Shown: one piece after another, positions 1,293 to 47,168 of the stretch
Layout: the number at the start of each line of letters is the position of its first letter
How positions within the stretch are numbered: position 1 is the first letter of the stretch
Assembly: GCA_041303415.1 (NCBI GenBank)
Contig: JBFYPG010000100.1
Coordinates: 3,825 to 67,824 of the forward strand
Length of the DNA stretch: 64,000 nucleotides
Direction of reading: 5' to 3'
From: Bacteroidales bacterium
Lineage (GTDB): Bacteria > Bacteroidota > Bacteroidia > Bacteroidales > VadinHA17
Position numbers and translations under genes: made by a program
Notes under the pieces: model-generated
Seen by the model: only the letters and a program-made list of their open reading frames with translations
Database searches by the model: none
What the model was told of the DNA's origin: nothing

Positions 1293-1331
1293 AATTCAGG
1301 AAATTAAATTATAATATAAAAAATATAACCT

Positions 1332-6315: not shown

Positions 6316-7918
6316 AGTGAAGACTACATTAAAGCCATCAATACAGTTTCCTGACAGGTTATTCAAATGGTCAGTTACTGTAATCAGAATTGCTGCAGGC
6401 TGGCATCTTCTCTATGAAGGACTCTCAAAGCTTATAGCCGGAGGCTGGAGCTCGGCTCCATTCCTTGCCGGCTCAAGATGGATCTTCGCTCCGGTATTTA
6501 CCTGGATGTCAGAATCATCCGCCATTACTTCAATAATTGACTTTCTTAATATCTGGGGATTGATCCTGATCGGACTGGCTTTGGTACTTGGCCTTTTTAC
6601 CCGGGCCGCGGCAGGTGCAGGAGCCCTGTTGCTGCTGTTCTATTTTGTCGCTTATCCTCCCATCCCGGGATATATGATCAGTGTCCCGGCCGAAGGTAGT
6701 TACCTCTGGATAAATAAGACACTTATTGAATTATTTGTACTTGCTGCATTTATTTTCATTCCGTCAGGGACCCATTTCGGAATTGACAGGCTTGTCCGAA
6801 GGTGGAAGGATGAGAAAGCAAGGAAGCCTGTTCCGGGTACACCAGTTGAAAAAGGCGAGGCAAAAGGCAGAAGGGAGATCATAAAGGACCTGATCTCGGT
6901 ACCGGCACTCGGGGCATTCGCCTATGCTCTCTACCGGAAGAGTAAATGGGACAGCTTTGAAGAGAAGTTCCTGAAAGTCCAGGGAATGGATGCTAACTCC
7001 GGGGCAACCCTTCTGAAATTCACGTACTCGTCTCTTAAGGAACTTAAGGGAGAAGTTCCGAAAACATCAATCAATTATAAGGATGAAAAGGGCAATCCGG
7101 CAAAATTTGAACTGAGCAGGCTAATAATGGGTGGAAATCTTATCGGGGGCTGGGCGCATGCGCGGGATCTTATTTATGTTTCAAAGCTGGTCAAAACTTA
7201 TCACACTGATGAAAAGGTGATGCAGACCATGGCCCTTGCTGAAAAATGCGGAATCAACGCTATTATAACAAATCCGCAGCTGGGCAGGATATGGCAGAAA
7301 TACAGACATGAATTCAGGGGGAAGATGAAATTTATATCCGATTGCGGGATAGCTCTCGATTTTCAGAAAGGTATTGCCATGTCACTTGCAGTTGAAGCCG
7401 ATGCGCTTTATTGCCAGGGAGAGATCACTGACCGCTGGGCTGATGAAAACTGGAATGATCCTGTCGCGGGAAGAACTTTGGAACAGCGTATGGAACTGAT
7501 CCGCAGCGGAATAGAAGAGATTCGCAGTCATGGTAAACCGGCAGGCATAGGAGCACATAAAATAGAAGCGGTTAAGAAATGTGTTGAATACGGCATAAAA
7601 CCCGATTACTGGGTGAAGACCTGCCACAGCCATAACTACTGGTCGGCCCAACCGGGTTCTCCCTGGAAGGATAATATGTTTGACTACGATCCTGAGGAGA
7701 CAATCAGGTTTATGGGAACGCTTAATGAACCATGGATAGCCTTCAAGGTACTTGCCGCCGGAGCTATTTCACCGGAGGAGGGACTGAAATACGCTTTCAG
7801 TAACGGAGCTGATTTTGTCTGCCTCGGGATGTACGACTTCCAGATTGTTGAGGATGTGAACATCGCCCTTGAAGCACTTGAAAAAGCAAAGGAGAGACAG
7901 AGGCCCTGGATAGTTTAA
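6293..7918 (+). CDS. DoxX-like membrane domain fused to an uncharacterised soluble domain of about 330 aa
   Basis: N-terminal four hydrophobic helices with a DoxX-like [14 protein letters not shown] start; I cannot assign the C-terminal domain. Start is ambiguous: TTG 6293 overlaps the kinase stop (6313-6315), and in-frame GTG 6317 follows it by one base. Confidence 0.6.
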
Positions 7919-8000: not shown

Positions 8001-8008
8001 TACTTTTG
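8001..8008 (+). promoter_or_regulatory. Candidate -7 box (TACTTTTG) for the TA pair
   Basis: Matches TAnnTTTG and ends 6 nt before ATG 8015, implying a near-leaderless transcript. No good -33 TTTG. Confidence 0.4.
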
Positions 8009-8014
8009 CACAAA

Positions 8015-8284
8015 ATGAACACTCCGGAAGTTAAGAAATTCATAAGGAAGCACAGTAATCTTTTCTGGTATATCCCTGAAGATAAGAAGGAAGATCTGAG
8101 TCCAGATGTAGTTGTGGAATTTATCTTAAATTATGGATCAATGGATGACATTATGACTTTGATCGGCATAATGGGAATTAAAGATACAGCAAGGATTTTC
8201 TTTGCAGCCGAGGGAAGAAAAAAATTAAACTATTACCCTGAGATATATAATTTCTTTTCTCTCTATTTTAATAAATATGCATAA
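8015..8284 (+). CDS. Small putative antitoxin partner of the AbiEii-like toxin
   Basis: 89 aa from the first ATG (the track start 8006 is TTG). Its stop overlaps the downstream ATG in ATGCATAA (8277-8284). The position is typical of a TA antitoxin; no domain recognised with certainty. Confidence 0.5.
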   Translation: MNTPEVKKFIRKHSNLFWYIPEDKKEDLSPDVVVEFILNYGSMDDIMTLIGIMGIKDTARIFFAAEGRKKLNYYPEIYNFFSLYFNKYA

Positions 8285-8894
8285 AGAGATCTTTTCGGAT
8301 AATCAGCTTAAACTTTTACCACTTGTTAAGGAGTTTAAACGTGAATTCTATCTTGTCGGAGGAACGGCAATAGCTCTATACCTTGGACACAGGAGATCAA
8401 TTGATTTCGATTTATTTAAAAGCTCTTCCATTCATCCAAAAAAGATTATTGAAAAAATATCGGCCTTTCATTTTAAATATCAGGTAACCCGCAGGGTTTC
8501 CGAACAACTGAACCTGACTGTGAATGACGTTTCATTTACTTTCTTTGAATACCCTTACATAATTGAGGCTGAAAACAATTTTGAAGACATATTACGTCTA
8601 CCCTCCTTGATTGACCTTGCCGCTATGAAGGCATACGCCCTTGGACGAAGATCGAAATGGAAAGACTATGTCGACTTTTATTATCTTTTAAAAAATCATT
8701 TCACCATAAACCAGATTTCTGACCGTGCTGTTGAAATTTACGACCAGATGTTTTCACAGAAGTTATTCAGGGCACAGATATGTTACTTTAAGGATATTTA
8801 CCATAAGGAACCTGTTGAATATCTGGCTGATCAACCTTCCGAAGAAGAAATAAAGTCGTTTCTGATTAATAAGGCAATCAATCTTGAACTTTAG
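8277..8894 (+). CDS. Nucleotidyltransferase AbiEii/AbiGii-family toxin (type IV TA)
   Basis: 205 aa with FYLVGGTAIALYLGHRRSIDFDLF, a minimal nucleotidyltransferase G-x-x...D-x-D motif characteristic of the AbiEii/DUF1814 family. 8-nt overlap with the upstream small gene. Confidence 0.75.
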   Translation: MHKEIFSDNQLKLLPLVKEFKREFYLVGGTAIALYLGHRRSIDFDLFKSSSIHPKKIIEKISAFHFKYQVTRRVSEQLNLTVNDVSFTFFEYPYIIEAENNFEDILRLPSLIDLAAMKAYALGRRSKWKDYVDFYYLLKNHFTINQISDRAVEIYDQMFSQKLFRAQICYFKDIYHKEPVEYLADQPSEEEIKSFLINKAINLEL

Positions 8895-10736
8895 TCAATT
8901 CCGCCTGATCAGGCAAACCCAGTCTCTGCTGTCGTCCCCGGGTGGATTTCCGGTTGATCTGTAACCTCCTCCTGTGATTGATGTAATGTTTCCCTTCAGC
9001 AATTCACCTCCGTTGCGCGGATTGTACCAGGCAATATTGTAATTGCCTTCAGAAAGCAGGATATCAGCAGCTTTTGCTGTCGGAAGATAGAGAGCGTATA
9101 TGGATCCTTTCTTCGCGAAGCAGTAATCATCCTGATCACGTGTCAGATCATCAGCACTTTCCATCTCTGTGAAAGGCAGATTATTGTGAAAGAAATCAAG
9201 GGCAATTTTTGTCTGTTCCCACAGATTGTTACGGCTTCGCCAATCTTCACAGCTCAGGTCGGAGTGGGGGTAGTTATACCCGAAATACCATTCCACCCCT
9301 CCGCCTCCGGCCATGAGATTTCCCCAGAGCACTTTGTGCCTTATGGTGTCATGGGCAGGATCCATGGCATCAGGCATTGCTCCCTGCCAGTGCGGACCAA
9401 TTTCATCGATGCAGACAACCCACTTATGACCAGATTCTGCTGATCTGCTTATCCAGTGTTTTGCATCCTCATGAATTTCATTAATGTTACCGCACTGGAT
9501 TGACGGTCCCTCAACATTCCTGAATCCGAGGTATTGTGTCATATCTTTCAGTCGCTGCTGAGGGGCAGAATGAGTGTGAATAATGATGAAATTATCATAT
9601 GGATCAATTGCCCTCAGGTAATCGGCCATGAGCTTTGTGTCCCTGTAAGTCTGGCCGTATGGCGACCAGTCAGTTGGGTGGTGTTCCTCTCCAAGGTTCC
9701 ATGTTACTGCCAGGTGATGTGAAAAACGAGCGACCAGTTCCCTCAGATACAATTTGCGCTGCACATCGAGGTAACCGCAATCAAGAAGACATTCATTCTC
9801 GGTTTCCTGAAGAACAAAATGGAGCATAATACTAAGCTTCTCTGCATGAGAAAAAACAATTTCCCACTGGTCGAGCTTGCTGCAATCGAACCTGTATCTT
9901 TCGTTACGGTCAGTATAAGGCCACACGTCCTCTCCGTCGCCCAGGATGTTCATTGTGAGCATGTATACACTATTCATACCCTTGGACGACAGATAGTTGA
10001 GTGCTCCTACTATTCCTTTTCCCAGTCCGTTTTTCCATTGAGGATCGCCTTCTTTCCAGTCACTGATGTGAGGTTCATAAAGATGAAGTCCGCTGTTAGG
10101 AGCGGCCTCTCCGCTTCGCGCCTTATTGTTCCCCCCGTAATATGTTCCGTCAAAATCCCTGTATCCCAGGAAATTCTCAGGAGAGTCAGCCCCGCCTTTC
10201 AGAAACCCCTCACCGGTTCCTGCATATTTAAGATAATGTGTACCATCATATTTGAGCCGCCCTTTTATATGGAAATCAGGAGCCTGTTTATCGCTCTTTT
10301 TTATCCTCATTTCGCCGGCAGTTCCATTAAAATAACATTCTTGTCCCATGCCCGCATCATCTGCAATGGCAATGTTCCTTCCTTTGAGGAAGCTTACCTT
10401 ATAATTCCATATTCCATCAGACGGAGGACAAAAGTGAACCCGCCATTTGTTTCCTGATCTTGATGATGTTTCAGCAGCATTACCGTCTGCTGCAAAAAAC
10501 CCAGGCACCTCGAATTCCATATCTCCGCTGGAAAAGGATACGTTTAAAAGATAATCCAGAAAGGGATTTATTGTATCGTATTCAGCAGCATAAGGTCCTG
10601 TGAATGTCAGTGTTATTGTATGCCAGGTTTTCATCTCTCCGCTGATTTCTGTTGTTGAAGAGGATGAACAGGAGCCAAGAAATAAGAATAAAGCAAGCTC
10701 AAGGATAATGAGCCGAAGAATATTTGCTTTTTTCAT
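8895..10736 (-). CDS. Lipoprotein glycoside hydrolase of the DUF5060 + cellulase-like (DUF4038-related) type
   Basis: Signal and lipobox LFLGSC. N-terminal WHTITLTFTGP beta-sandwich signature I associate with DUF5060, followed by a TIM-barrel-like core (NSVYMLTMNILGDGEDVWPY, VTWNLGEE). Confidence 0.6.
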   Translation of the reverse strand: MKKANILRLIILELALFLFLGSCSSSSTTEISGEMKTWHTITLTFTGPYAAEYDTINPFLDYLLNVSFSSGDMEFEVPGFFAADGNAAETSSRSGNKWRVHFCPPSDGIWNYKVSFLKGRNIAIADDAGMGQECYFNGTAGEMRIKKSDKQAPDFHIKGRLKYDGTHYLKYAGTGEGFLKGGADSPENFLGYRDFDGTYYGGNNKARSGEAAPNSGLHLYEPHISDWKEGDPQWKNGLGKGIVGALNYLSSKGMNSVYMLTMNILGDGEDVWPYTDRNERYRFDCSKLDQWEIVFSHAEKLSIMLHFVLQETENECLLDCGYLDVQRKLYLRELVARFSHHLAVTWNLGEEHHPTDWSPYGQTYRDTKLMADYLRAIDPYDNFIIIHTHSAPQQRLKDMTQYLGFRNVEGPSIQCGNINEIHEDAKHWISRSAESGHKWVVCIDEIGPHWQGAMPDAMDPAHDTIRHKVLWGNLMAGGGGVEWYFGYNYPHSDLSCEDWRSRNNLWEQTKIALDFFHNNLPFTEMESADDLTRDQDDYCFAKKGSIYALYLPTAKAADILLSEGNYNIAWYNPRNGGELLKGNITSITGGGYRSTGNPPGDDSRDWVCLIRRN

Positions 10737-10757
10737 AGAAGAGTGTAATGAATATGA

Positions 10758-12209
10758 TCAGCTCCACAACCGGTCGTGCGAACGCCTGTCGTCCCACTCG
10801 GGTGTAGGTTCGAAATAACCTTTGGCCCTGGGATGCAGGTGCTTCCTTACTTCTTCTTCGTTCAGTTCGATGCCCAGACCAGGAGAATCGAGCGGCACAT
10901 TGGCGAACCCATTTGTTACCATTGGCTGGCTTCCTGTCATCCTTACAAGGTTTTCCCACCATGGGGTGTCAACACTGTGGTGTTCGAGAGCCAGAAAATT
11001 CTGTGTTGCTGCAGAACAATGTACATTGGCCATAAAGCATACGGGTGTCCCTGCCATGTGCATTGCCATTGCAACTCCGCACTCCTCGGCATAGTCGCCA
11101 ATCCTCTTTGTTTCAAGCAATCCTCCTGATGTTGCCAGGTCGGGGTGGATTATATCAACTGCACGGGCATCAAGAAGAGGCTTGAATCCGTCTTTAAGCA
11201 TGTAAATATCCTCCCCCGTACAGGTAGGCGTTTCGATCGCATCCGATACTGTTTTCCACTGATCGGTATAAAACCAGGGAACCATATCTTCCAGCCATGC
11301 AAGCCTGTACTTTTCCATCGCTCTTCCAAATCGTATGGAATTGTTAATATCAAAATGACCGAAGTGGTCAGCGGCGAGGGGCATCTCATATCCCACAGCA
11401 TTACGAACCTGTTCCACATATTCGGCCATTCCCTCGAGCCCCTTATCGGTGATCTGCACCTGGGTAAAAGGATGAAGGGTGTTTCCGTAGCCCATGTATG
11501 TCCTCAGGTCGTACTGGCCGGTCGCCCCATCCCAGAATTTTGAATTTACTATTGTATCCGGCTGATTTGCAACTACATGAATACCGAGATCCATCTTGAG
11601 CCATGTAAATCCCTGTTCCTCAACGCGCCGCTTCATGGTTTGCGCAAATGTGACAGGGTCCTTTGCCCCGGGGGTATCGGCATACAGGCGGATCTTATCC
11701 CTGTACCTGCCGCCCAGGAGCTGCCAGGCCGGAACACCATAGGCTTTTCCGCAAAGATCCCAGAGGGCCATCTCAACTGCGCATACTCCTCCTCCTTGCC
11801 TTCCGTGGTAACCCCACTGCCTGATTATCTTGAATATCATTTCAACATTGCAGGGATTCAGTCCCAGAATCCTGCTTTTAAGCATGAGCGCGTACCTCTC
11901 GTCTGCGCCGTCCCTCACTTCACCAAGCCCGGAGATTCCCTGATTAGTATCTATCCTTATAATTGCCGTTCGTCCAACATTCCCGACCACGGCGACACGC
12001 ATGTCGGTGATCTTGAGGTCGGAGGGGCTTGAAGCCCTGCTCACTCCGGAAGTTGTCTGAGCGATCATGTCCTCAAACGAAAGTGCCATGAGCCCTCCAA
12101 GAGCCACTCCTCCCATAGCCGTTTTTTTCAGGAAGCTGCGCCTATTGCTATTCTTACCCTGTTCCGACTGACTTTCCTGCTTCCTTATTTCTTCAATGAT
12201 TTTTTTCAT
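10758..12209 (-). CDS. Enolase-superfamily (mandelate racemase/acid-sugar dehydratase-like) enzyme with twin-arginine signal
   Basis: Trimmed to ATG at 12209 (MKKIIEE..). TAT motif SNRRSFLKK plus an h-region. MR/MLE-like core (AVEMALWDLCGKAYGVPAWQLLGG, KMDLG, LEDM). The track N-terminus (GVRRQAS x5) reads through a heptamer DNA repeat. Confidence 0.8.
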   Translation of the reverse strand: MKKIIEEIRKQESQSEQGKNSNRRSFLKKTAMGGVALGGLMALSFEDMIAQTTSGVSRASSPSDLKITDMRVAVVGNVGRTAIIRIDTNQGISGLGEVRDGADERYALMLKSRILGLNPCNVEMIFKIIRQWGYHGRQGGGVCAVEMALWDLCGKAYGVPAWQLLGGRYRDKIRLYADTPGAKDPVTFAQTMKRRVEEQGFTWLKMDLGIHVVANQPDTIVNSKFWDGATGQYDLRTYMGYGNTLHPFTQVQITDKGLEGMAEYVEQVRNAVGYEMPLAADHFGHFDINNSIRFGRAMEKYRLAWLEDMVPWFYTDQWKTVSDAIETPTCTGEDIYMLKDGFKPLLDARAVDIIHPDLATSGGLLETKRIGDYAEECGVAMAMHMAGTPVCFMANVHCSAATQNFLALEHHSVDTPWWENLVRMTGSQPMVTNGFANVPLDSPGLGIELNEEEVRKHLHPRAKGYFEPTPEWDDRRSHDRLWS

Positions 12210-12251
12210 ATGATTAAGTTTTAAATTTCCTTTCGGTTCAGATTTACAGGT

Positions 12252-12353
12252 CGCCTGACGCCTGACGCCTGACGCCTGACGCCTGACGCCTGACGCCTGA
12301 CGCCTGACGCCTGACGCCTGACGCCTGACGCCTGACGCCTGACGCCTGACGCC
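12252..12353. repeat. Tandem heptamer array (CGCCTGA) about 14.5 units
   Basis: Perfect 7-nt periodicity read directly. Lies between the RraA-like stop (12359) and the enolase-family ATG (12209). Confidence 0.95.
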
Positions 12354-12358
12354 GTTCA

Positions 12359-13291
12359 TTACCAATTTCTTTCCTTAAAATAGTTATCCAGCTCCTGCTT
12401 TGACATTGGAAGCTTACCCGGGTAATTGCTGAGCCAGTTCATGAAATCCTTCCTGATCTCATCGCTCCACTGGCTGTCGATCTGGCCGGGCTTGTATGTT
12501 CCTTCACGAAGCCTCTGGTGCCCGAACTGGTCACGCAGTGCAGTTACCTCGGAAGTTATCACAAGCTCTTCAACAAGGTGAGAGGGTATGAATATCACGC
12601 CGTATTTTTTTGCCAGCACTACATCGCCGGGCAGAACTGTTGCGCGGCCTATGCGTACCGGAGCATTTATTGAAACGAGCGACATCTGCATGATGTACGA
12701 TGGATCAGAGCCCTTGATCCATCCGTTGAAGCCTTCTATCTCACTCAATCCCTCAACATCCCTTACTGAGCCGTAGAAAATTACTCCCCGTTTCGACTTC
12801 GAATAGATTGAATTGCCAAGATTGTCACCTATGAGAGTTCCGTCTATTATCTTGCCATAGCTGTCGGCAACATAAACATCGCCTTCCACAAGCACATCTA
12901 TGGGCCAGGAGTTTGTGCCTCCCTGCTGTGCCCGGTTTTCAGCTTTCCCCTTTTCTTTTATATACTTCTCAAAGTCAGGTCTGAGAGGCATATACTGTGC
13001 GGTTACCACTCTTCCTGTCATTACTTCATCAGGATGAATGATGGTCCAGTCACCTTCGAACTGATTCATATAGCCTTTGTTGCGAAGTACTCCCCAGGCC
13101 TCCTCTATAGAGATGTTTTTTAATCGTTCCAGGATCGAATCCGGAACTTTTGGCCTGCCATCATCAAACCTTTCACCTTTCCATTCAGAAGTCAGCGCCC
13201 TGATACATTCAGGCGGAGATCCTACATTCTGTGCTCCTGCTGCATAAACAGCAGACAATAAAATCGTTATTAAAAGTGACTTTTTAATCAT
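12359..13291 (-). CDS. RraA-family protein (RraA / HMG-aldolase-like fold) with Sec signal peptide
   Basis: Signal MIKKSLLITILLSAVYAAGA-QN. Core motifs GDVYVAD.., GDNLGNS, RGVIFYGSVRDVEGL, VLPGDVVLAKKYGVIFIP match the RraA/dimethylmenaquinone-methyltransferase-like family. Confidence 0.7.
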   Translation of the reverse strand: MIKKSLLITILLSAVYAAGAQNVGSPPECIRALTSEWKGERFDDGRPKVPDSILERLKNISIEEAWGVLRNKGYMNQFEGDWTIIHPDEVMTGRVVTAQYMPLRPDFEKYIKEKGKAENRAQQGGTNSWPIDVLVEGDVYVADSYGKIIDGTLIGDNLGNSIYSKSKRGVIFYGSVRDVEGLSEIEGFNGWIKGSDPSYIMQMSLVSINAPVRIGRATVLPGDVVLAKKYGVIFIPSHLVEELVITSEVTALRDQFGHQRLREGTYKPGQIDSQWSDEIRKDFMNWLSNYPGKLPMSKQELDNYFKERNW

Positions 13292-13326
13292 AATATAGTT
13301 TTAAAATCCGCAATCCGCAATAACAA

Positions 13327-14325
13327 TTACGTTCCTGCGTATACCAGCAGTGCAAGTCCCGCGAGATAGGCAAGGAACATGGCTACTATCAATAAGTTAA
13401 CCTGTTTTGTTGCTCCTTTGAATTCTTTCCATATAAATACTCCCCACAGAGCGGCAATTAGAGTGGCACCCTGTCCAAGACCATAGGAGATAGCAAAGCC
13501 TGCTTTTTCCGAAGCGAGTATGCTCATTGCCATTCCGATATTCCAGATTATGCCCCCCAGTATTCCTGTCAGATGTACTTTTACACTTCCGTTTGTATAG
13601 TCTTTGAACGAGAGAGGCGCACCTTCAAAAGGCTTCTTCATAATGATATAGTTGAAGATCAGGTTGCTTAGCAGCACACCGATGGCAAAAAAGAAAACTG
13701 CGGAGTAGGGGGTAAGCTTGCCTGCTTCGGGTGACACAAAATCGGTTGCCATGGAGCTGGCCACGAACCGGTAGAAAAGAGCCATCAGGACTCCCGCCGA
13801 GACTGACAGCATTATTCCTTTCCCGGATACCTTCTGCTGTGATGAACTGTGCTTCTTGTAGGCTATAGCGTCAATGATTATCGCGACAACGATGAGTGCG
13901 AGGCCGGTGAACAGGATAGTGGGATTGCCTTTGGGCACGGCGATATAGTTAATAATCACACCGAGGGCCAGGGCAATGCCGACACCAACCGGAAAGGCAA
14001 CAGCCATGCCGGCTATGGACATGGCCGCCACAAGCAGGATATTTGAAGCATTGAAGATTACGCCCCCGAGCATTGAATTGAGAATGTTGCCGGTATCTGC
14101 CTGTGAAATATCTTCAATGAAGCTCCGTCCGCTCTCCCCTGTGCTGCCCATTGTGAAGCCGAGGGTCACTGCAAAAAGCAGGATGCCGATTACATAGTCC
14201 CAGTAGAAGAGCTCAAACCTCCATGATTTTCCTGCGAGCTTCTGGGTGTTGCCCCATGATCCCCAGCAGAGCATGGTGATTATGCAGAGAATGACGGCGA
14301 GTGAGTAGGTTTGCGGTATGAACAT
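13327..14325 (-). CDS. DMT-superfamily sugar permease (GRP/RhaT-like), paralogue of 291..1292
   Basis: 332 aa, colinear with 291..1292 ([41 protein letters not shown]); roughly half the positions are identical by eye. Confidence 0.6.
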   Translation of the reverse strand: MFIPQTYSLAVILCIITMLCWGSWGNTQKLAGKSWRFELFYWDYVIGILLFAVTLGFTMGSTGESGRSFIEDISQADTGNILNSMLGGVIFNASNILLVAAMSIAGMAVAFPVGVGIALALGVIINYIAVPKGNPTILFTGLALIVVAIIIDAIAYKKHSSSQQKVSGKGIMLSVSAGVLMALFYRFVASSMATDFVSPEAGKLTPYSAVFFFAIGVLLSNLIFNYIIMKKPFEGAPLSFKDYTNGSVKVHLTGILGGIIWNIGMAMSILASEKAGFAISYGLGQGATLIAALWGVFIWKEFKGATKQVNLLIVAMFLAYLAGLALLVYAGT

Positions 14326-14335
14326 AGTTTTTAAG

Positions 14336-14460
14336 TTTGGAGTACTTAGAGTTTGGAGTACTTAAAATTAAGAAGAAGTACTTAAAGTGACTAAAGTTTG
14401 AAGTACTTAAAGTTAAGAACAGACTATTTAACTCTAAGTACTTTAGGCACTCCAGGCACT
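14336..14460. repeat. Word repeats built around the AGTACT palindrome (5 copies)
   Basis: AGTACT occurs at 14341, 14357, 14377, 14402 and 14437, within TTTGGAGTACTTAGAG / GAAGTACTTAAAG words. The last copy is inverted (CTCTAAGTACTTT). Confidence 0.85.
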
Positions 14461-14465
14461 TTTAA

Positions 14466-16076
14466 TTATTCATAAGAAAACTTGAAATTATCACTTTTTT
14501 TCGGAGACGTTTTAAAAATTGTCGCTCCGGTTAAATAAACCTTTGTTCCTTCCGATTCGGGACGCTTTTCTCCCCGCACGACAACCCTGATCTTATGCTC
14601 TCCCTGCTGCAGTCCGGTAACATGCCATAGAGTCTCAACGTGCTGCTGGTTTGCAAAGTAATAGTAGGTGTCAATGGTGCGATGAAATTTGCCATCCACA
14701 AACAGATCGGCCTTTCCGCCATCCCTGAACCAGTTTCCGGTAAGTGCTATCCCGGTTCCGCTGAAAGCTATCTCGAGCTCATCACCTTTATTCTGTGCAA
14801 ACATGGATTGCTTTACAGGCTGACCACTGCGGTCGCTTGCCTCCTGAATTTTCCATTCCCCCCTGAAGGTCCATGAACCATCATCGAAAATAGAAACTCT
14901 TTTGTCAAAGACCAAGTCGGGGAATGAAACCTCAATCGGGGGTGCGACCGGGTCCTGCACTTTTACACTGATTGTTCTGCCGGCAGTTGTCCCGCCGTTT
15001 TCTGCTATCAGGTCAAGTGCATATTTATATGTGCTTTCAACAGCAGAATTGAAAGAGTAAGAAGTGTGGATGAAGACCGAGTCGCCTATATTCTTTATTC
15101 CTTCCTGCATTCCGGCAGGCAGACTGCTGAATCCGCTTATTACACCGAGCACAGCAAGGGCGTTCGACGGATTACAATCCGAATCCTGACCGCAGCGGGT
15201 TGATACTTCCAGGGTCTTCATTGGATCGCCTTCACCATAAAGCAGTCCCATTGCTATATAGGCTCCGTTAAGCTTTGCGTCAATGTTAAAAGGATCGCCG
15301 GCCCCGCAGATATCAACATCACCCCATTTGTTTTCAAGCTCCTTCCATGCAGCCCTCCAGTCATCAGGATAATGCCCGTGCAGCTTTATGACATCCTTTA
15401 TTATCCGGCAATAATCGCTTTCTGAGGGTATCGATTTCAATGCCTTTTCCAGAATAAGCGCTATATCTGATTCAAAGTAAGCCCCGGCATAAAGAGCTGC
15501 TACAAATACTCCTCCATAGACTCCGTCACCGTAATTCATTATATGCCCGATTCTGTCAGCAATCTTAAGCGCTGTTTGCGGCATCCCGGGGCACATGAAG
15601 CCGATATAGTCAGCTTCTATCTGGAAATCAATATCATCCGCATGGATATTGTACTCAGGACTCCCTGAAAGAGGCGCAAAAACAGAGTCGTAGTAATTCT
15701 TTCGGGCCTGCATATTTGCATGCCACAAAGGGTAACCGGCTTTAGCGAACAGCTCTTGGTATTTTTTCACAGGCGCATCAATTCCGTATTTGTCCATAGC
15801 CATCAGGAATGTAAGCTGGACATACAGGTCATCCTGCCATATACTTCCTTTAATGTCTTCCGGCTTCCATTTTATTGAATCCTCGTAAGTAGCTGCCCTG
15901 GCCCTGAATTCAGTGGGTCCCCCGTATGTGACGCCGATCATCTTGCCGGCCCATCCCCCGGCGATCTTGTCTTTAAGGACTTCGGGATCAATGGTTTTGA
16001 ATTCAGCCTCTTTGTTACTGCATGAGGTTAGGAGCAGTAATAAGATAAAGTTAACAAGTGAAGTAATAGTTTTCAT
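14466..16076 (-). CDS. Lipoprotein ADP-ribosylglycohydrolase-family protein with C-terminal beta-sandwich (CBM-like) domain
   Basis: Trimmed to ATG 16076 (MKTITSLVNFILLLLLTSC lipobox). ARH-family motifs GGWAGKMIGVTYGGPTEF and CGQDSDCNPSNALAVLG. The last ~190 aa are beta-rich (WTFRGEWK.., HKIRVVVRGEK). Confidence 0.75.
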   Translation of the reverse strand: MKTITSLVNFILLLLLTSCSNKEAEFKTIDPEVLKDKIAGGWAGKMIGVTYGGPTEFRARAATYEDSIKWKPEDIKGSIWQDDLYVQLTFLMAMDKYGIDAPVKKYQELFAKAGYPLWHANMQARKNYYDSVFAPLSGSPEYNIHADDIDFQIEADYIGFMCPGMPQTALKIADRIGHIMNYGDGVYGGVFVAALYAGAYFESDIALILEKALKSIPSESDYCRIIKDVIKLHGHYPDDWRAAWKELENKWGDVDICGAGDPFNIDAKLNGAYIAMGLLYGEGDPMKTLEVSTRCGQDSDCNPSNALAVLGVISGFSSLPAGMQEGIKNIGDSVFIHTSYSFNSAVESTYKYALDLIAENGGTTAGRTISVKVQDPVAPPIEVSFPDLVFDKRVSIFDDGSWTFRGEWKIQEASDRSGQPVKQSMFAQNKGDELEIAFSGTGIALTGNWFRDGGKADLFVDGKFHRTIDTYYYFANQQHVETLWHVTGLQQGEHKIRVVVRGEKRPESEGTKVYLTGATIFKTSPKKSDNFKFSYE

Positions 16077-16104
16077 AAAATTGTTTTTAATACTAAGAAC
16101 TTTA

Positions 16105-16217
16105 GTTACACAGAGTTTCACAGAGAAAGCACAGAGTTCCACAGAGCGTTAGATGGCTGTAACCCTCCGTGGATCTCTGTGTATCCTCCGTCCCGAGTAC
16201 TCGGGACTCTGTGTAAC
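16105..16217. repeat. Long imperfect palindromic element of the CAC-N-GAG word family
   Basis: Perfect 11-bp termini GTTACACAGAG / CTCTGTGTAAC. Internal CACAGAG x4 words and the hairpin GTCCCGAGTACTCGGGAC. Fills the gap between the nucleoside hydrolase stop and the ARH start. Confidence 0.9.
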
Positions 16218-17206
16218 TATTTTTTATTCATAGGTATATGCATCATTCTGTCTTCAATGAATTTTGCCATTTCAGGTACGGGCATTTTCTGAATTACATA
16301 GGTATGGTTTCCTTCAGGATCATCCACCCAGGTGTTGCTGCCATCCTCGTTGACTATTATCCTGCCTCTTTTCGTATCAAAGAATCCTTCAGCCCCATAT
16401 ACTCCGATAAGCACTGCAGTTTCATCCCAGCTCATGCGGCCATATTTGTCTTCTTCCGACATGGGAATACTCATACTGAATACATCTTTTACGGGGCTGT
16501 TGCTGACAGGAGATTCTATCAGCCTCAGTCCGGTCCTTATTTCCCATCCGATCTCAAATCCAGTGAATATTATTTCGCCCGGCCAGTTCTCGAATACAAA
16601 TTTTGAAGAAACAGAATCTATATAAATGTTGAACTCCTTTCCTTCCGGGAATTTGCCTGCCATTGATACAAGCAGCCTGACCTTTTCAGAAACCAGGTCT
16701 ATCCCATTTAGAGGGCTGTGATCGTCGGGTCCAGATTTAAGAAGGCCTGCCAGGTTTGTCAGAAATCCGACTGTGACAATTGTCACGCTTTTATCCGGCT
16801 GCGACATCAGGATCTCACGGTAAACATCAACAGCATCCCTGACCTCAGATGTGGAATTTACGTGGTGGGGGTACTTTGCCACCAGGGAATCGGGCCATTT
16901 CTGCCATGCACCCATATCAGCCCCGTAACCTATTGGTGCTCCAAGAGGAAGATCAGGTCGGCCAAAATATGTGTTTATGACATCTATAGAAGGTGCAACG
17001 AGCTTGTGCCTGTTTGACGAAACCGTAGTCAGTATTTCTGCCAGGCCGCTGTCGGCTGTTGCATGAAGAAAAGCAAGGGCTCCGACATCGTCATAATCAG
17101 GGCCGAGGTCAGTATCGAAAATGATATTCACCTTTTCATCGGCAGGGCCGGAGCAGCCTGTAAAAGAAAGTAGTGCCCCCATGCAGGCAATTATGACATA
17201 TTTCAT
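16217..17206 (-). CDS. Lipoprotein nucleoside hydrolase (inosine/uridine-preferring family)
   Basis: Signal and lipobox LLSFTGC. N-terminal IIFDTDLGPDYDDVGALAFL aspartate cluster typical of the IUNH family. Confidence 0.8.
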   Translation of the reverse strand: MKYVIIACMGALLSFTGCSGPADEKVNIIFDTDLGPDYDDVGALAFLHATADSGLAEILTTVSSNRHKLVAPSIDVINTYFGRPDLPLGAPIGYGADMGAWQKWPDSLVAKYPHHVNSTSEVRDAVDVYREILMSQPDKSVTIVTVGFLTNLAGLLKSGPDDHSPLNGIDLVSEKVRLLVSMAGKFPEGKEFNIYIDSVSSKFVFENWPGEIIFTGFEIGWEIRTGLRLIESPVSNSPVKDVFSMSIPMSEEDKYGRMSWDETAVLIGVYGAEGFFDTKRGRIIVNEDGSNTWVDDPEGNHTYVIQKMPVPEMAKFIEDRMMHIPMNKK

Positions 17207-17225
17207 AATATGATGCTTGAGTTGA

Positions 17226-18128
17226 TTATACTATAACCTCTTCCCTGTAAGGTGCGGAGCTCTGTGCTCCCATCCTCGTCACGCAAATGGATGCTGCCTT
17301 GTTTGCGAATATCACAGCTTCCCTTAGCTCTTTTCCTTCAGCGAATGAAACAGCAAGGGCAGCATTGAAAACATCCCCTGCGCCGGTGGTATCAATGGCT
17401 TTGACTTTTACACCCGGGAACATTTCGGTAAATTCCCCGGTTTTTACAAATGCCCCGGCCGCACTCATGGTGATAATCACATTCTTCACTCCTTTCTTCA
17501 GCAGGTAGGTTGCAGCAGCATCAGCTGTAGTTTCGTTGTGCACCTTGATGCCTGTCAGTATACTGGCTTCTGTTTCATCCGGTGTGATCAGCCACAGATG
17601 CTTAAGGAGATAATCGTGAAGCTTCTGCGCGGGAGCAGGATTCAGTATAACTTTAATTTTGTTTTCAGATGCCGTAATTGCGGCATATTCGACTGTCATG
17701 AGCGGGATCTCAAGCTGAAGCAGCATTACTCCATATTTGCCTGGAGTAAAGACCTCATTGTCAATATCCTGAACGAGAAGGTTGCCGTTCGATCCGGGCG
17801 CGACGACAATACTGTTCTCTCCTTCGGAGTCAACCGTAATAAGGGCAACACCTGACGGAAGTTCGGTATCTTTTACGATGTACCGCGTGTCAATACCCTC
17901 TTTCTTGAGTATGCCTGTAGTCTCGCTTCCAAACAAGTCATCGCCTATTTTTGCCACAAAAGTTATCTTCCCTCCGAGGCGTGCGGCTGCAACTGCCTGA
18001 TTTGCACCTTTGCCTCCGGGATTCATAAGGAATGTGCCTCCGAGGATCGTTTCTCCGGGTGAAGGGATTTTGTCAGTTTTAATTACCATATCGGTATTGG
18101 AACTGCCGATAACGAGGATCTTTTTCAT
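17226..18128 (-). CDS. rbsK: Ribokinase
   Basis: 300 aa PfkB fold: VIGSSNTDMV, GGKGANQAVAAARLGG, C-terminal DTTGAGDVFNAALA. First gene of the minus-strand array. Confidence 0.85.
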   Translation of the reverse strand: MKKILVIGSSNTDMVIKTDKIPSPGETILGGTFLMNPGGKGANQAVAAARLGGKITFVAKIGDDLFGSETTGILKKEGIDTRYIVKDTELPSGVALITVDSEGENSIVVAPGSNGNLLVQDIDNEVFTPGKYGVMLLQLEIPLMTVEYAAITASENKIKVILNPAPAQKLHDYLLKHLWLITPDETEASILTGIKVHNETTADAAATYLLKKGVKNVIITMSAAGAFVKTGEFTEMFPGVKVKAIDTTGAGDVFNAALAVSFAEGKELREAVIFANKAASICVTRMGAQSSAPYREEVIV

Positions 18129-18170
18129 AGGTCAGGAAATTATGCTGTTATATTGTACCGAATGTAATAC

Positions 18171-18178
18171 TATTTTTG
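18171..18178 (+). promoter_or_regulatory. Candidate -7 box (TATTTTTG) for the BASS-kdgK-GH88 operon
   Basis: Matches TAnnTTTG about 125 nt upstream of ATG 18303. The -33 element is weak. Confidence 0.35.
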
Positions 18179-18302
18179 CTCAATTAAAAAGATAATGATC
18201 CTGAAAAAAAGCATTTATTTTTAAAATTCCCGGGGTTTATGGGCAATATTGTCCAATTGTTTATCTTTAAAATGTAAAGTGCCGGATATATTTTACAAAA
18301 TA

Positions 18303-19601
18303 ATGCAAACAAAGTATTACAGGTATCTGCTATTTGTTACACTCGCTATTTTTGCCGGTGCCATATCCGCATTTCTTTTCAGGAAAACTGAGCTTGGCGG
18401 TATGATGATGATCGCGGGCTTCATCGCCCTTGCCTGGGGGGTAAGAGGCTATCCTGCGCTTAAAGGATTTTCATATACGCTATGGATATTTACTGCAGTT
18501 ACAGCTTCGATGTTCTTCCCGCAGTATTTCACATCAATAGGCAAATTCCAGCTTAAGAGCATGATAGTTCCCCTGCTTCAGGTAATCATGTTCGGGATGG
18601 GTTCCCAGATGAGCTTTGAGGATTTCAAGGGTGTGATCAAAATGCCAAAAGGTGTTCTGATTGGGATATTTTCACAGTTTACTATCATGCCGCTGGTCGG
18701 CTTAACGATCGCCCGGATGTTCAATTTTCCTCCTGAGATAGCGGCAGGGATCATCCTGATAGGATGCGTACCTAGCGGACTTGCATCCAATGTAATGTCA
18801 TTCCTTGCAAAGGCTAACCTTGCCCTGGCCGTAACCATCAGCGCAGTTACAACACTGCTCTCGCCATTCATAACACCGGTACTTATGAAATGGATCGGAG
18901 GCCAGTTCATAGAGGTAGATTTCTGGAGCATGATGCTTGATATCCTGAATATGATAATCCTTCCGATAATTGCCGGATTCATGTTCAATCTTTTTGCACG
19001 GAAAAGTGCCGGACGATCATCATTCATAATCCAGCTTATTGTTTATCCTGTGATAATCCTGATGACAACCCTTGTGTTTGCCAGGGCACGGAGTGCCGGA
19101 ACAGGCGAATTTTTTATCCAGTTCCTCAAGTCGCTTGCATGGTTCTATTTCCTTCCGATGGCCGGAGGGGTTTTAATGTCGCGAAACCTCAGGGGCAACA
19201 ACAGGATAATGGAAAGAGTGCTTTCATTTGTCTCAATGGCTGGTATTGCAGTGATAGTCACCATCATAACTGCTTCAGGCAGGGAGAGCCTGCTTCAGGT
19301 GGGGGCTCTGCTTATGGTGACCAGCCTGATTCATAACCTTTCCGGATATACACTCGGGTATACCATCTCCTGGCTCTTCGGGATGCCTGAAAGAGACCGG
19401 CGCACAATAGCGTTCGAAGTCGGCATGCAGAACGGTGGTCTCGCTTCCGGCCTTGCCTTGCAGATGGGGAAAATTGCAACCGTGGGTCTTGCTCCTGCGA
19501 TCTTTGGACCTCTCATGAACATTACAGGATCCGTACTCGCAAATTGGTGGAGAGGTCATGAACCAGCAACCAGCAACCAGCAACCAGCAACAAGTAACTG
19601 A
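18303..19601 (+). CDS. Bile acid:sodium symporter (BASS/SBF-like) family transporter
   Basis: Trimmed to the first ATG (18303). Polytopic, with GCVPSGLASNVMSFLAKANLALAVT and FEVGMQNGGLA motifs. The last 13 codons (EPATSNQQPATSN) are encoded by the AACCAGC heptamer array. Confidence 0.75.
   Translation: MQTKYYRYLLFVTLAIFAGAISAFLFRKTELGGMMMIAGFIALAWGVRGYPALKGFSYTLWIFTAVTASMFFPQYFTSIGKFQLKSMIVPLLQVIMFGMGSQMSFEDFKGVIKMPKGVLIGIFSQFTIMPLVGLTIARMFNFPPEIAAGIILIGCVPSGLASNVMSFLAKANLALAVTISAVTTLLSPFITPVLMKWIGGQFIEVDFWSMMLDILNMIILPIIAGFMFNLFARKSAGRSSFIIQLIVYPVIILMTTLVFARARSAGTGEFFIQFLKSLAWFYFLPMAGGVLMSRNLRGNNRIMERVLSFVSMAGIAVIVTIITASGRESLLQVGALLMVTSLIHNLSGYTLGYTISWLFGMPERDRRTIAFEVGMQNGGLASGLALQMGKIATVGLAPAIFGPLMNITGSVLANWWRGHEPATSNQQPATSN
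19561..19598 (+). repeat. Tandem heptamer array (AACCAGC)x4 plus AACAAGTAAC
   Basis: Read directly. It encodes the C-terminal tail of the BASS transporter and ends 11 nt before the kdgK ATG. Confidence 0.95.
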
Positions 19602-19609: not shown

Positions 19610-20641
19610 ATGAAAGTCATTACATTCGGAGAGATAATGCTTCGCCTGGCAACGCCTGGGCATCAGAGGATATCGCAGGTGACTTCCTACTGCGCTTCAT
19701 TTGGTGGAGGGGAGGCCAACGTGGCTGTTTCACTGGCCAATTTCGGATTGCATGCAGAATTCGTAACCCGCCTTCCACAGAACGACCTGGGTGATTCAGT
19801 GATCATGGAACTAAGGAAGCACAATGTCGGAACAAACCATATACTAAGAGGCGGAGAAAGACTTGGCATATATTTCCTCGAAACAGGCTCAGTGTCGCGG
19901 CCAGGCAAAGTCATTTATGACAGGGCTAATTCTGCAATTGCCGAAATCAAACCCGGAATGATCAGCTGGGAAGAGATATTCAGGGAAACCCAATGGTTCC
20001 ACTGGACCGGTATTACTCCGGCTATCTCAGAAGGAGCGGCCGCAGTATGTCTTGAGGCTGTGAAGGCAGCGAGAAAGAGCGGGATAATCATCTCATGTGA
20101 CCTTAATTTCAGAAAGAATCTTTGGAAATGGGGCAAAACGGCATCAGAAGTGATGCCAGAACTGGTGAAGGAGTGCGATATTATCCTTGGCAACGAAGAG
20201 GATGCAGATAAGGTGTTCGGGATCAAACCCGAAGGAGCCGATGTGTTCAGGGGCGAAGTCAGGGGAACAAGCTACGAATCTGTATGCAAAAAGCTGAAAG
20301 CCAGATTTCCGCAGGCAAAAAAAATAATAATAACCCTCAGGGGATCGGTTAGCGCCGACCACAATTCATGGTCAGGCGTGCTCTATGACGGCAGGAAGCT
20401 TTACGAGGCCCCGGTATACCAGATAACGCATATTATTGACAGGGTGGGAGGGGGCGACTCTTTCATGGCAGGCATCATTTACGGCATGCTCGCATTCCCT
20501 GATAATGACCAGAAGACCCTCGATTTTGCGGTTGCCGCTTCATGCCTGAAACACACAATACACGGTGATTTCAATCTCGTAACTGTCGGTGAGGTCGAAC
20601 AACTGATGAAAGGTGATAAATCGGGCCGGGTAATGCGCTGA
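19610..20641 (+). CDS. kdgK: 2-dehydro-3-deoxygluconokinase
   Basis: 343 aa PfkB kinase: MKVITFGEIMLRL, GGGEANVAVSLANFG, DRVGGGDSFMAGIIYG, the KdgK-type pattern. Confidence 0.8.
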   Translation: MKVITFGEIMLRLATPGHQRISQVTSYCASFGGGEANVAVSLANFGLHAEFVTRLPQNDLGDSVIMELRKHNVGTNHILRGGERLGIYFLETGSVSRPGKVIYDRANSAIAEIKPGMISWEEIFRETQWFHWTGITPAISEGAAAVCLEAVKAARKSGIIISCDLNFRKNLWKWGKTASEVMPELVKECDIILGNEEDADKVFGIKPEGADVFRGEVRGTSYESVCKKLKARFPQAKKIIITLRGSVSADHNSWSGVLYDGRKLYEAPVYQITHIIDRVGGGDSFMAGIIYGMLAFPDNDQKTLDFAVAASCLKHTIHGDFNLVTVGEVEQLMKGDKSGRVMR

Positions 20642-20668: not shown

Positions 20669-21856
20669 ATGAAAAAGACAATTATTATTACAATATGCCT
20701 GTCGATGATCATCTTATCATCATGCAGGAAAGAAAAAGACATGAAAGAGATCATCGACGAATCATTCCTTGCGGGACTAAGGCAATACAGCCTGCTGGCT
20801 GAGGTTATGAAAGAGAAGCCTGATCTTCTGCCCAGGACGATCGATGAGAATGGCAACCTGGTAACCGCCGGCTCCGGATGGTGGACATCAGGGTTCTTCC
20901 CGGGAAGCCTCTGGCTTATATATGAATATTCAGGTGATGAAAAGATAAAGGAGTTAGCCATACAGATGACTTCCCGGGTGGAAAAGGAGAAGAACAACAC
21001 CGGAACACATGATCTCGGGTTCATGATGTATAACAGCTTCGGCAACGGATTGAGGCTGACCGGCGAAGAGAGTTATGAGGAGGTTCTGCTGACATCGGCA
21101 AGGTCGCTCTCAACCCGGTTCAGACCTAATATCGGATGTATCCAGTCATGGGGAAGCAACTCAAAGTGGCAGTGCCCCGTGATAATTGATAATATGATGA
21201 ACCTCGAACTGCTCATGTATGCTTTCAGCGTAACAGGCGACTCCTCGTTTTACAATATATGCATCAGCCATTCCGATACGACCATTAAAAATCATTACAG
21301 GCCTGATTACAGCTCCTGGCATGTTGTTTCATATGATACGATTACCGGTGGGATACAGGTGAAGCAGACCCACCAGGGTGCTGCTGACGGGTCAGCATGG
21401 TCGCGCGGCCAGGTGTGGGGGCTTTACGGGTATGTAACGATGTACAGGGAGACAAAGCTTCAGAGATATCTCGACCATGCGATTCATATAGCTGATTTCC
21501 TGATAAGCCATCCGAATATGCCGGATGACGGGATACCATACTGGGATTTCGATGCTCCCGGCATACCTGACGCCAGGCGCGATGCATCGGCAGGAGCGAT
21601 AATGGCATCAGCACTTATCGATCTGTGCCGGTTCACGGATGAGGAAACAGCGAAGAAATATCTTGATTTCGCAGAGAAGCAGCTAAGAAGCCTTGCTTCT
21701 GATGAGTACCTGGCTAAAGAGGGAGAGAACGGATTTTTTATTCTGAAGCACGGCGTTGGACATCTTCCCGGTAACAGTGAAGTTGATGTACCGCTTACAT
21801 ATGCAGATTATTATTTTCTTGAAGGTCTGCTCAGATACCGGTATTTTACCGATTAA
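20669..21856 (+). CDS. Lipoprotein glycoside hydrolase family 88 (unsaturated glucuronyl hydrolase-like)
   Basis: Lipobox ILSSC. GWWTSGFFPGSLWLIYEYSGD and WSRGQVWGLYG motifs typical of GH88. 27 nt after kdgK. Confidence 0.8.
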   Translation: MKKTIIITICLSMIILSSCRKEKDMKEIIDESFLAGLRQYSLLAEVMKEKPDLLPRTIDENGNLVTAGSGWWTSGFFPGSLWLIYEYSGDEKIKELAIQMTSRVEKEKNNTGTHDLGFMMYNSFGNGLRLTGEESYEEVLLTSARSLSTRFRPNIGCIQSWGSNSKWQCPVIIDNMMNLELLMYAFSVTGDSSFYNICISHSDTTIKNHYRPDYSSWHVVSYDTITGGIQVKQTHQGAADGSAWSRGQVWGLYGYVTMYRETKLQRYLDHAIHIADFLISHPNMPDDGIPYWDFDAPGIPDARRDASAGAIMASALIDLCRFTDEETAKKYLDFAEKQLRSLASDEYLAKEGENGFFILKHGVGHLPGNSEVDVPLTYADYYFLEGLLRYRYFTD

Positions 21857-33290: not shown

Positions 33291-33380
33291 TTGGTTGCTG
33301 GTTACTGGTTGCTGGTTGCTGGTTACTGGTTGCTGGTTGCTTGTTGCTGGTTGCTTGTTGCTTGTTGTTGGTTACTTGTT
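33291..33380 (-). repeat. Tandem heptamer array, about 13 units of AACCAGC/AACAAGC/AGTAACC as read on the minus strand
   Basis: The plus strand reads GGTTGCT/GGTTACT/GCTTGTT units. The array ends 1 nt from the E2 start codon (33289). Confidence 0.95.
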
Positions 33381-46940: not shown

Positions 46941-47168
46941 TTCCCGGCCATTTTGCGTGCAAAATACTGAAAGAATTGATAACTAACATTTGGATGTTGA
47001 TAAAATCAATAATAAAGCCCGGCCGCCGGCGTTTAATAATTGTAATTTTACAACTGATTTTTAAAAGTGAAGTGTGTTATATATGGCTATAAATTAATCT
47101 GTTACGGGGGATCTGAACTTTCAGCCGGCAAAACGGATAAAAAAGGGAAAAGCCAAAAGGGACAAGTT

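Follow-up and report, generated by a model that had tools for sequence, protein, structure and literature searches.

A seven-gene array in a Bacteroidales bacterium as a probable join of a SusC/D-less, rus-type ribose cassette, an exported sugar-acid pair and an optional glycosidase

Seven minus-strand genes follow one another head to tail at positions 8895-18128 of a 64,000-nucleotide stretch of a Bacteroidales bacterium of the VadinHA17 lineage (assembly GCA_041303415.1, contig JBFYPG010000100.1, positions 3,825 to 67,824; the whole stretch is referred to below as the window), and the question they raise is whether they form one pathway or several that have come to stand together. A preliminary description of this DNA had taken them for a single extracytoplasmic system that frees ribose from ribosylated substrates and imports it without a SusC/D complex. 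Judged by families, folds and conserved motifs, together with export signals and modular synteny, the array appears on balance to be a lineage-specific join of three units: a ribose cassette of the type found in ribose utilisation (rus) loci, an exported sugar-acid pair and an optional glycosidase.

In gene order, the array encodes a ribokinase, a nucleoside hydrolase (NH), a lipoprotein resembling ADP-ribosylglycohydrolases (ARH-like), a DMT-superfamily permease, an RraA-like protein, an enolase-family enzyme and a DUF5060 lipoprotein, separated by gaps of 19, 140, 140, 35, 146 and 21 bp. Open reading frame (ORF) positions and family scans bore out the seven same-strand genes and the families previously assigned to them. 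Signal peptides and lipoboxes were assigned by eye and by conservation among homologues; the lipoboxes recognised by inspection were FTGC in the NH, LTSC in the ARH-like protein and LGSC in the DUF5060 protein, and the SPII lipoprotein, TAT and export labels of the preliminary description look right on these grounds. Its statement that the array lacks a SusC/D pair also held for the whole 64 kb window, in which no SusC/D-like gene, TonB-dependent receptor or SusD-like protein was found, and no adjacent SusC/SusD pair of the kind that defines a polysaccharide utilisation locus (PUL). The sole window protein of more than 1000 aa was a TPR protein. SusC/D identity was considered for a gene pair at 47067-51928 (1041 aa and 569 aa) and rejected, as these are a TPR protein and an unassigned protein.

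For comparative analysis, two sets of loci were used. The genome set was drawn from the genomes of different species and comprised 70 loci with the ARH-like protein as anchor, of which 67 species-level loci were compared, and the metagenome set comprised 80 loci anchored on the RraA-like protein. The window proteins were mapped onto both sets, and the denominators given below vary with the count.

The first four genes formed a recurrent cassette. A ribokinase gene was adjacent upstream of the ARH-like gene, on the same strand and within 2.5 kb, in 42 of 61 loci, and the DMT permease lay directly downstream of it in 39 of 60 (identity 78-97%). The NH gene was an optional member, adjoining the ARH-like gene in half of the loci (28/56). 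Locus L002 held a three-gene minimal form consisting of kinase, ARH-like and permease genes without other sugar genes nearby. In the closest relative (L003) the NH and ARH-like genes overlapped, and in locus L001 (10001-12538) they were naturally fused into one protein of 845 aa (P0028), which sits within a SusC/D locus together with GH16, GH127-like and LAM55 genes. In a Chitinophagaceae locus (L052), the trio of ARH-like, ribokinase and permease genes stood among genes for GH27, GH127-like, GH5, GH31 and GH3 enzymes and an esterase; the trio was found embedded in multi-glycosidase loci (L001, L052), with SusC/D or without it. In metagenome locus L082 (3074-4636), the ARH slot of an otherwise syntenic operon was occupied by a 38%-identical paralogue with the same architecture of lipoprotein signal, ARH domain and beta-sandwich and the same metal-site motifs, which looks like cassette-style hydrolase swapping.

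The fifth and sixth genes behaved as a unit of their own. An enolase-family gene followed directly downstream of the RraA-like gene in 43/43 loci. Junctions of this pair with the permease were rare, at 4 of 58 loci in the genome set and 7 of 57 in the metagenome set. A gene for a kinase resembling 2-keto-3-deoxygluconate (KDG) kinase, a BASS-family transporter gene, or both, were present in 26 of the 28 RraA-anchored loci with sufficient flank. The usual layout was a GH88-like gene (divergent), RraA-like and enolase-family genes, KDG-kinase-like and BASS genes (divergent), and then the ribose cassette. In L012 the pair was followed by an MFS transporter. The pair also occurred without ribose genes, in L140 (2380-16731), where SusC and SusD precede two tandem RraA-like/enolase-family pairs, after which come RidA, a PLP enzyme of SelA-like type, an amidohydrolase and a BASS transporter; here the exported pair stands in a different context, possibly one of amino-sugar acids. 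The seventh gene was variable: no more than 7 of 55 loci had a DUF5060 gene after the cassette, and more distant DUF5060 homologues stood in unrelated neighbourhoods.

The full colinear order of seven genes was found in none of the 67 species-level genome loci and was confined to a small clade of metagenome contigs (e.g. L080 and L082), which argues for a lineage-specific join of the three units. The identical order in these independent contigs indicates that the arrangement is not an accident of assembly.

Several points weigh against such a join. The ribose cassette and the sugar-acid module lay no more than 10 kb apart in most genomes of the clade (13 of 18 RraA-anchored loci), with three or more arrangements among them, and this proximity could mean a shared substrate and not mere inherited synteny. 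In L131 the ribokinase gene stood directly upstream of the RraA/enolase pair without NH, ARH-like or permease genes. No rusR-like or LacI-like regulator adjoins the array in the window: the divergent upstream gene encodes the BASS transporter, and the nearest regulator-like gene, a hybrid PAS sensor kinase at 3433-6315, had no detected DNA-binding domain. The organism is furthermore known from metagenome-assembled genomes alone.

The same proximity can be turned into an argument that all seven genes form one extracytoplasmic pathway freeing or processing ribose from ribosylated substrates such as ADP-ribose conjugates, which we regard as unlikely. The genes share one strand with gaps of 19-146 bp, only 35 bp separate the permease from the RraA-like gene, the order is repeated in L080 and L082, most genomes of the clade have the two modules side by side in one of several arrangements, and growth of Bacteroides thetaiotaomicron on ADP-ribose requires its rus locus. 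Against it stand the rarity of the permease-RraA junction and the missing colinear order among the genome loci, the transporter and kinase partners that the pair has of its own, its presence in the unrelated SusC/D locus L140, and the unrelated contexts of the DUF5060 homologues. Moreover, canonical ARH enzymes acting on ADP-ribosyl conjugates yield ADP-ribose, and family scans of the window proteins found no exported pyrophosphatase or phosphatase at the locus by which ribose would be reached, so that ADP-ribose conjugates are not the favoured substrate. The earlier idea of a single seven-gene system was therefore not borne out, either for the RraA/enolase pair or for the DUF5060 gene; the part that stands is rus-like, SusC/D-less ribose salvage by the first four genes, the remainder being separable units.

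Turning to the ribose cassette itself, the ribokinase (17226..18128) is predicted to be cytoplasmic and matched PfkB (E 1e-71) and the equivalog model TIGR02152 (351.5 bits; cutoff 299.65); the kinase expected of a rus locus is therefore present. Rus loci have been defined by at least two adjacent rus homologues at a BLAST E-value of 1e-50 or below (Glowacki et al., bioRxiv 10.1101/574913). The NH (16217..17206) is a divergent enzyme of the inosine-uridine (IU) type, matching PF01156 at 56.3 bits (cutoff 34.2), and is a predicted lipoprotein (N-terminus ...SFTGC|SG). Its Asp cluster DTDLGPDYDD aligned with DCDPGLDD of the Crithidia IU-NH structure 1mas, and it fell outside the RihA, RihB, RihC and UriH equivalogs (16-38 bits against cutoffs of 382-459). 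The permease (13327..14325), a GlcU/RbsU/RhaT-like sugar permease of the DMT superfamily, matched PF06800, PF07168 and TIGR00776; its match is at family level (PF06800 and TIGR00776), and it is conserved beside the ARH-like and ribokinase genes. It is the presumed ribose importer.

The ARH-like lipoprotein (14466..16076) was studied in most detail. The ORF tool extended it to 16142; the true start is at 16076 (MKTITS...LLTSC) and the recorded protein has 536 aa. It matched PF03747 over model positions 1-286 of 287 at 97.7 bits (cutoff 26.2), and its tail gave a weak CE2_N-like match in the family scan. In an AlphaFold2 model (mean pLDDT 82, pTM 0.82), a helical catalytic domain at residues ~24-360 is predicted, followed by an all-beta C-terminal beta-sandwich at ~365-536. 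Foldseek searches of the helical domain against the PDB returned ARH3, MJ1187, DraG and an ARH-related protein of Thermus thermophilus with target TM-scores of 0.63-0.72, a probability of 1.00 and ~13% identity, which places the model in the ARH fold. For the tail, the matches were the BT_2959 C-terminal domain (3nqh) and the domain at the N-terminus of CE2 esterases. By sequence the relationship was more difficult to detect: a PDB search with the single protein found no ARH, and a narrow profile of ARH-like proteins (A1, 58-89% identity) matched PDB entries through the beta-sandwich only, again without an ARH.

An exhaustive search of 1.84 billion cluster representatives recovered 2893 relatives at E <= 1e-3, of which 390 were at E <= 1e-30. 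A broad profile was built from 39 diverse relatives of this search and aligned to Tri1, MJ1187, DraG and ARH3. E56 (the Glu of GxPTEF), D82/D83 and D298/D300 (GQDSDC) aligned to the metal-site motifs of Tri1, MJ1187 and DraG, and all five residues were invariant among close homologues; Q81 and C301 stand where Thr or Ser usually flank the metal ligands. Loss of the metal-binding residues had been named beforehand as grounds for abandoning the preliminary reading, and the alignment shows them retained. The best profile match among solved structures was the Tri1-type immunity hydrolase 6dre (E 8.6e-07). The protein could not be placed in a characterised subfamily (ARH1, ARH3 or DraG), as the broad profile reached ARH3 and DraG at E 1e-3 and did not find ARH1.

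Among the relatives, the ARH-like domain was fused to GH43, GH92, a GH84-like module, a CBM48-esterase, PKD domains and a type IX secretion tail. Such a fusion pattern is that of a secreted carbohydrate-active module, and because the subfamily is joined to glycoside hydrolase modules, the protein is more likely to be a ribosidase than a protein de-ADP-ribosylase. In solved ARH3 complexes (e.g. 6d36), the terminal ribose is bound through its hydroxyls by two metal ions, so a retained metal site fits ribose recognition in general. The conserved partners, a ribokinase and a ribose-type permease, lead us to infer that the enzyme releases free ribose from non-phosphorylated ribosides. As regards its location, an acidic export signal has been described for surface lipoproteins of Bacteroidota; positions +2 to +6 after the lipidated Cys of the ARH homologues were only weakly acidic, with one Asp/Glu or none in 43 of 51, and surface exposure of the protein is for this reason not supported by its sequence.

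In the scheme that we propose for the first unit, the ribokinase, the optional NH, the ARH-like lipoprotein and the DMT permease would carry out rus-type ribose salvage without SusC/D. Small substrates or free ribose would pass the outer membrane without such a complex. The NH and the ARH-like protein would act outside the cytoplasm, periplasmic or surface-facing, as two lipid-anchored, metal-dependent hydrolases: the NH would cleave beta-N-ribosides, and the ARH-fold enzyme, holding the terminal ribose in its two-metal site, would cleave a ribosyl bond that the NH cannot, with alpha-linked or O-linked ribofuranosides as candidate substrates. The permease would then carry free ribose across the inner membrane, and the ribokinase would convert it to ribose-5-phosphate.

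The second unit begins with the RraA-like protein (12359..13291), which matched PF03737 at 59.5 bits (cutoff 24.5) and carries a Sec-type signal peptide that was kept in 27/27 homologues inspected. Its best matches among solved structures were the yeast-type RraA protein 5x15 and the HMG/CHA aldolase 3noj; the segment 'svRDveg' aligned with 'gvRDtqt' of 3noj, with the Arg-Asp pair conserved. By sequence it has the class II pyruvate aldolase/oxaloacetate decarboxylase fold and is a putative aldolase. The enolase-superfamily enzyme (10758..12212) was listed as an ORF of 535 aa that reads through a heptamer repeat; its true start is at 12212 (MKKIIEE...SNRRSFLKK). It matched PF13378 (MR_MLE_C, E 2.6e-45), PF02746 (MR_MLE_N, E 7.2e-10) and the TAT model TIGR01409 (21.1; cutoff 16.7), and the twin-arginine motif SRRxFLKK was conserved in all homologues inspected. 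The best PDB match was the uncharacterised structure 2qq6 (E 1.7e-60). The enzyme is acid-sugar dehydratase-like, and no specific galactonate, mannonate, gluconate or rhamnonate dehydratase could be assigned: the galactonate and mannonate models scored 174 and 155 bits, both under cutoff (311 for the best), and apart from the best score, every model fell still further short of its cutoff.

Three plus-strand genes divergent from the array are of kinds that travel with this unit. They encode a BASS-family organic-acid transporter (18249-19601; PF01758, with PanS/BASS models below cutoff) that resembles a keto-acid carrier, a KDG-kinase-like PfkB protein (19610-20641; 498.7 bits on the kinase half of NF041633, a model of a KDPG-aldolase/kinase fusion) and a GH88-like lipoprotein (20669..21856; PF07470, 29.5 against 26.6). 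In 17 of 57 metagenome loci a GH88-like gene was placed upstream of RraA in divergent orientation, and many genome loci also had it there. The stretch 8036-14323 of L131, with its ribokinase, reads glycerophosphodiester phosphodiesterase, ribokinase, RraA-like protein, small ORF, enolase-family enzyme and AGE-family epimerase. Dehydratase and aldolase/decarboxylase chemistry needs a divalent metal only, which makes it feasible in the periplasm, and the RraA/enolase pair would constitute a separate periplasmic sugar-acid module that is free of cofactors other than metal. Its product would probably be a 2-keto-3-deoxy acid, which the neighbouring BASS or MFS transporter would import and the KDG-kinase-like enzyme would phosphorylate.

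The third unit, the DUF5060 lipoprotein (8895..10736; N-terminus ...FLGSC|SS), matched PF16586 and PF12904 (Collagen_bind_2). Its AlphaFold2 model (pLDDT 79, with residues 191-240 and 261-280 below 50) has disordered loops and comprises a (beta/alpha)8 barrel, preceded by an Ig-like domain and followed by a beta-sandwich corresponding to Collagen_bind_2. Foldseek returned the GH5 mannanase ManDH5 (9gmj, E 1e-22), the putative glycosidase BVU_0362 (4n0r) and the GH140 apiosidases 8t9w and 5msy (BT_1012), with E-values of 1e-22 to 1e-14 and ~14% identity. No Pfam Cellulase or DUF4038 match and no sequence-level match to a GH family was obtained, and a single-sequence PDB search found nothing. 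The invariant residues N347, E350/E351 and E445 are candidate catalytic residues. As the model matches GH5 and GH140 structures, the protein is taken as a predicted glycosidase of clan GH-A type and of no assigned family, GH5/GH140-like and optional to the array.

With all three units described, the wider neighbourhood can be weighed as a whole. It is quite unlikely, in our view, that the ARH-like protein is a glycan-active glycosidase of an unclassified family and that the GH88-like, RraA, enolase, KDG kinase, BASS, ribokinase, NH, ARH, DMT and DUF5060 genes form one regulon for a polymer of ribofuranose and acidic sugar. The fusions of the ARH-like domain to GH43, GH92, GH84-like, CBM48-esterase and type IX secretion modules would suit such a role, as would the tail resembling a carbohydrate-binding module (CBM), the place of the gene inside multi-glycosidase loci and the persistent linkage of the ribose and sugar-acid modules; the paralogue of the same architecture in the ARH slot of L082 is what would be expected if specificity were diversifying. 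Yet there is no SusC/D pair for polymer import, the minimal three-gene forms lack any glycosidase, no such activity is characterised in the literature searched, and the linkage may reflect shared ancestry within one clade. A bolder version, to which we likewise attach a rather low probability, is that the exported ARH-fold lipoproteins are the founding members of a glycoside hydrolase family of metal-dependent ribofuranosidases, with glycans or conjugates that contain ribose as substrates and not ADP-ribosylated proteins, and that the linkage of the modules marks the periplasmic breakdown of a substrate containing ribofuranose and an acidic sugar. Capsular polysaccharides of ribose and ulosonic acid are an example of such a substrate.

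That the ARH-like protein is a protective de-ADP-ribosylase for immunity or repair, like Tri1 or DraG, standing by chance beside ribose genes, is highly improbable: the Tri1-type best match (6dre) and the AbiE toxin-antitoxin pair adjoining the array would fit it, but dozens of species share its operon with ribokinase and permease genes, P0028 joins the domain to an NH, the protein has a lipoprotein signal and a CBM-like tail, its identity to any characterised ARH is just ~13%, and PADLOC gave no support for a defence role of the ARH-like protein, the NH or the RraA-like protein.

Whether the join of ribose cassette, sugar-acid pair and glycosidase is also expressed as a unit was considered from the intergenic regions. 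The units lie head to tail with short gaps and are thus probably co-expressed; a common transcript of the seven genes is plausible in this organism. The palindromic element of the preliminary description, there suspected of ending transcription, is real and is placed at 16103..16219, in the NH-ARH gap. It is a 117-nt palindrome of ~10-nt CACAGAG/CTCTGTG repeats with a predicted RNA fold of -70.9 kcal/mol (z = -11.5) and without a U-tract after it. An Rfam scan of 8700-18400 gave sub-threshold chance matches only, so the element matches no described RNA family. It was absent from L003, and elements of the same type were found in L064 at 8620-8725 and 9868-9950, in the ribokinase-NH and NH-ARH gaps; the intergenic site occupied within this operon varies from species to species. 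It looks like a dispersed intergenic repeat inserted in the operon and not a dedicated terminator.

The ARH-DMT intergenic region (14326..14465) contains four to five copies of TAAGTACTYC / ACTCCAAACT motifs, with four exact copies against 0.11 expected by chance. At other loci, short tandem arrays, for example of (CTTTTAT)n or (AACTTTAC)n, were located just upstream of the permease start codon; such arrays were seen in the ARH-DMT gaps of ~40 loci, often after a GC-rich hairpin, and may be a conserved regulatory or leader feature of the permease gene. The gap between the RraA-like and enolase-family genes is occupied by the heptanucleotide repeat (GGCGTCA)n at 12252..12353 (14.6 copies, 100% match), which starts 5 nt past the RraA-like stop and ends ~40 nt before the enolase-family start. 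Copy number was 10 in L076 and 5 in L077, two further assemblies of this organism with flanks 99.8-100% identical. The heptamer could be a contingency-type repeat or a product of assembly collapse. Further tandem repeats of 7-8 nt in 4-14 copies were observed at 33292-33373, 46074-46186, 59559-59625 and 19561-19591 of the window, and the organism seems rich in short intergenic repeats. A scan for sigma-70 promoters and terminators performed no better than on shuffled sequence and is ill-suited to Bacteroidota promoters. The array's coding strand had no copy of TAnnTTTG, the -7 motif of Bacteroidota.

Several neighbouring genes were recorded in addition. The AbiEi/AbiEii-type toxin-antitoxin pair (8006-8894) abuts the array end, and an AbiE pair was also located beside the ribose cassette in L001, L007, L014, L029, L059, L070, L080 and L082. 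At 3433-7918, the hybrid PAS sensor kinase/response regulator comes before a protein of 541 aa that has a DoxX membrane domain at its N-terminus; this pair was conserved beside the array in the closest relatives (L003, L082, L085, L091 and L097). A second DMT permease, 53% identical to that of the array, is found at 291-3281 beside a D-apionate-lactonase-like gene (NF049900, 256 bits, below the cutoff of 750), and together these may be a unit for uptake and catabolism of a branched pentose (apiose). An apiose link between the lactonase-like gene and the DUF5060 protein, taken as a GH140-like apiosidase, was considered and rejected: the folds do resemble each other, but the GH5 mannanase and BVU_0362 are closer to the latter and the two genes are non-syntenic elsewhere. 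The segment 21853-31946 contains Zn-dependent dehydrogenases, a PfkB kinase, a class II aldolase-SDR fusion, a class II aldolase, an unassigned 426-aa protein and an E1/transketolase-like fusion, and looks like another sugar catabolic pathway.

Ribose is a ubiquitous and little-studied carbon source for Bacteroidota. The locus described here and dozens of related loci would represent a version of rus free of SusC/D that is common in Bacteroidales of sediments, wetlands and digesters. In the ARH-fold clade (2893 representatives at 50% clustering) the metal site is kept and the genomic setting is like that of a carbohydrate-active enzyme; knowledge of its substrate would annotate thousands of entries named 'ADP-ribosylglycohydrolase family protein'. 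The exported RraA-like and enolase-family enzymes, always paired, suggest sugar-acid lyase chemistry in the periplasm, of which the literature searched gives no description. That search produced nothing pertinent on DUF5060 glycosidases, ribofuranosidase, exported ARH in Bacteroidetes or exported RraA/enolase pairs beyond the preprint of Glowacki et al. The published basic picture of rus loci is left unchanged by these findings. The rus study reportedly appeared later in Cell Host & Microbe in 2020.

In that preprint, 70 rus configurations are described, from two genes (kinase plus permease) to 36-gene PULs, and rus loci are defined by adjacent kinase, permease and regulator homologues; the NH and the ADP-ribosylglycohydrolase of B. 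xylanisolvens served as additional queries (Glowacki et al., bioRxiv 10.1101/574913). ADP-ribosylglycohydrolases are named there among the variable rus enzymes, a SusC/SusD pair is reported in almost all rus loci, and minimal forms without SusC/D are noted (bioRxiv 10.1101/574913). With both ADP-ribosylglycohydrolases in rus and SusC/D-less minimal loci already described, the combination reported here is not new in kind. Compared by gene family, the array is like the rus locus of B. thetaiotaomicron (BT2802-BT2809) in that a ribokinase, an NH and a sugar permease share one locus with an unclassified glycosidase. It differs in lacking SusC/D and a rusR or LacI regulator, in having one ribokinase and not two, in an NH that is a predicted lipoprotein where RusNH of B. 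thetaiotaomicron is soluble and periplasmic, and in carrying the exported RraA/enolase pair. The DUF5060 protein is analogous in role to the unassigned RusGH of B. thetaiotaomicron, and homology is not implied.

The ARH-like protein shares with the ARH/DraG family (ARH1, ARH3, DraG, Tri1 and MJ1187; PF03747) the all-helical fold, the Glu of GxPxE, the vicinal Asp-Asp and the D-x-D motif. Unlike these proteins, to which its identity is low and among whose characterised subfamilies it has no place, it is exported, lipid-anchored and provided with a CBM-like C-terminal beta-sandwich, and its genomic partners imply that it would release free ribose and not ADP-ribose. The sugar-acid pair, for its part, is like the galactonate/mannonate dehydratase group (2qq6) and the HMG/CHA RraA-like aldolases (3noj, 5x15) in family and in the Arg-Asp pair. 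Characterised acid-sugar dehydratases and RraA-like aldolases are cytoplasmic, whereas the pair in this array is exported, through TAT and Sec respectively for the enolase-family and RraA-like members, and a logic of dehydratase plus aldolase, or of dehydratase plus kinase, would fit the KDG-kinase-like gene that lies beside it.

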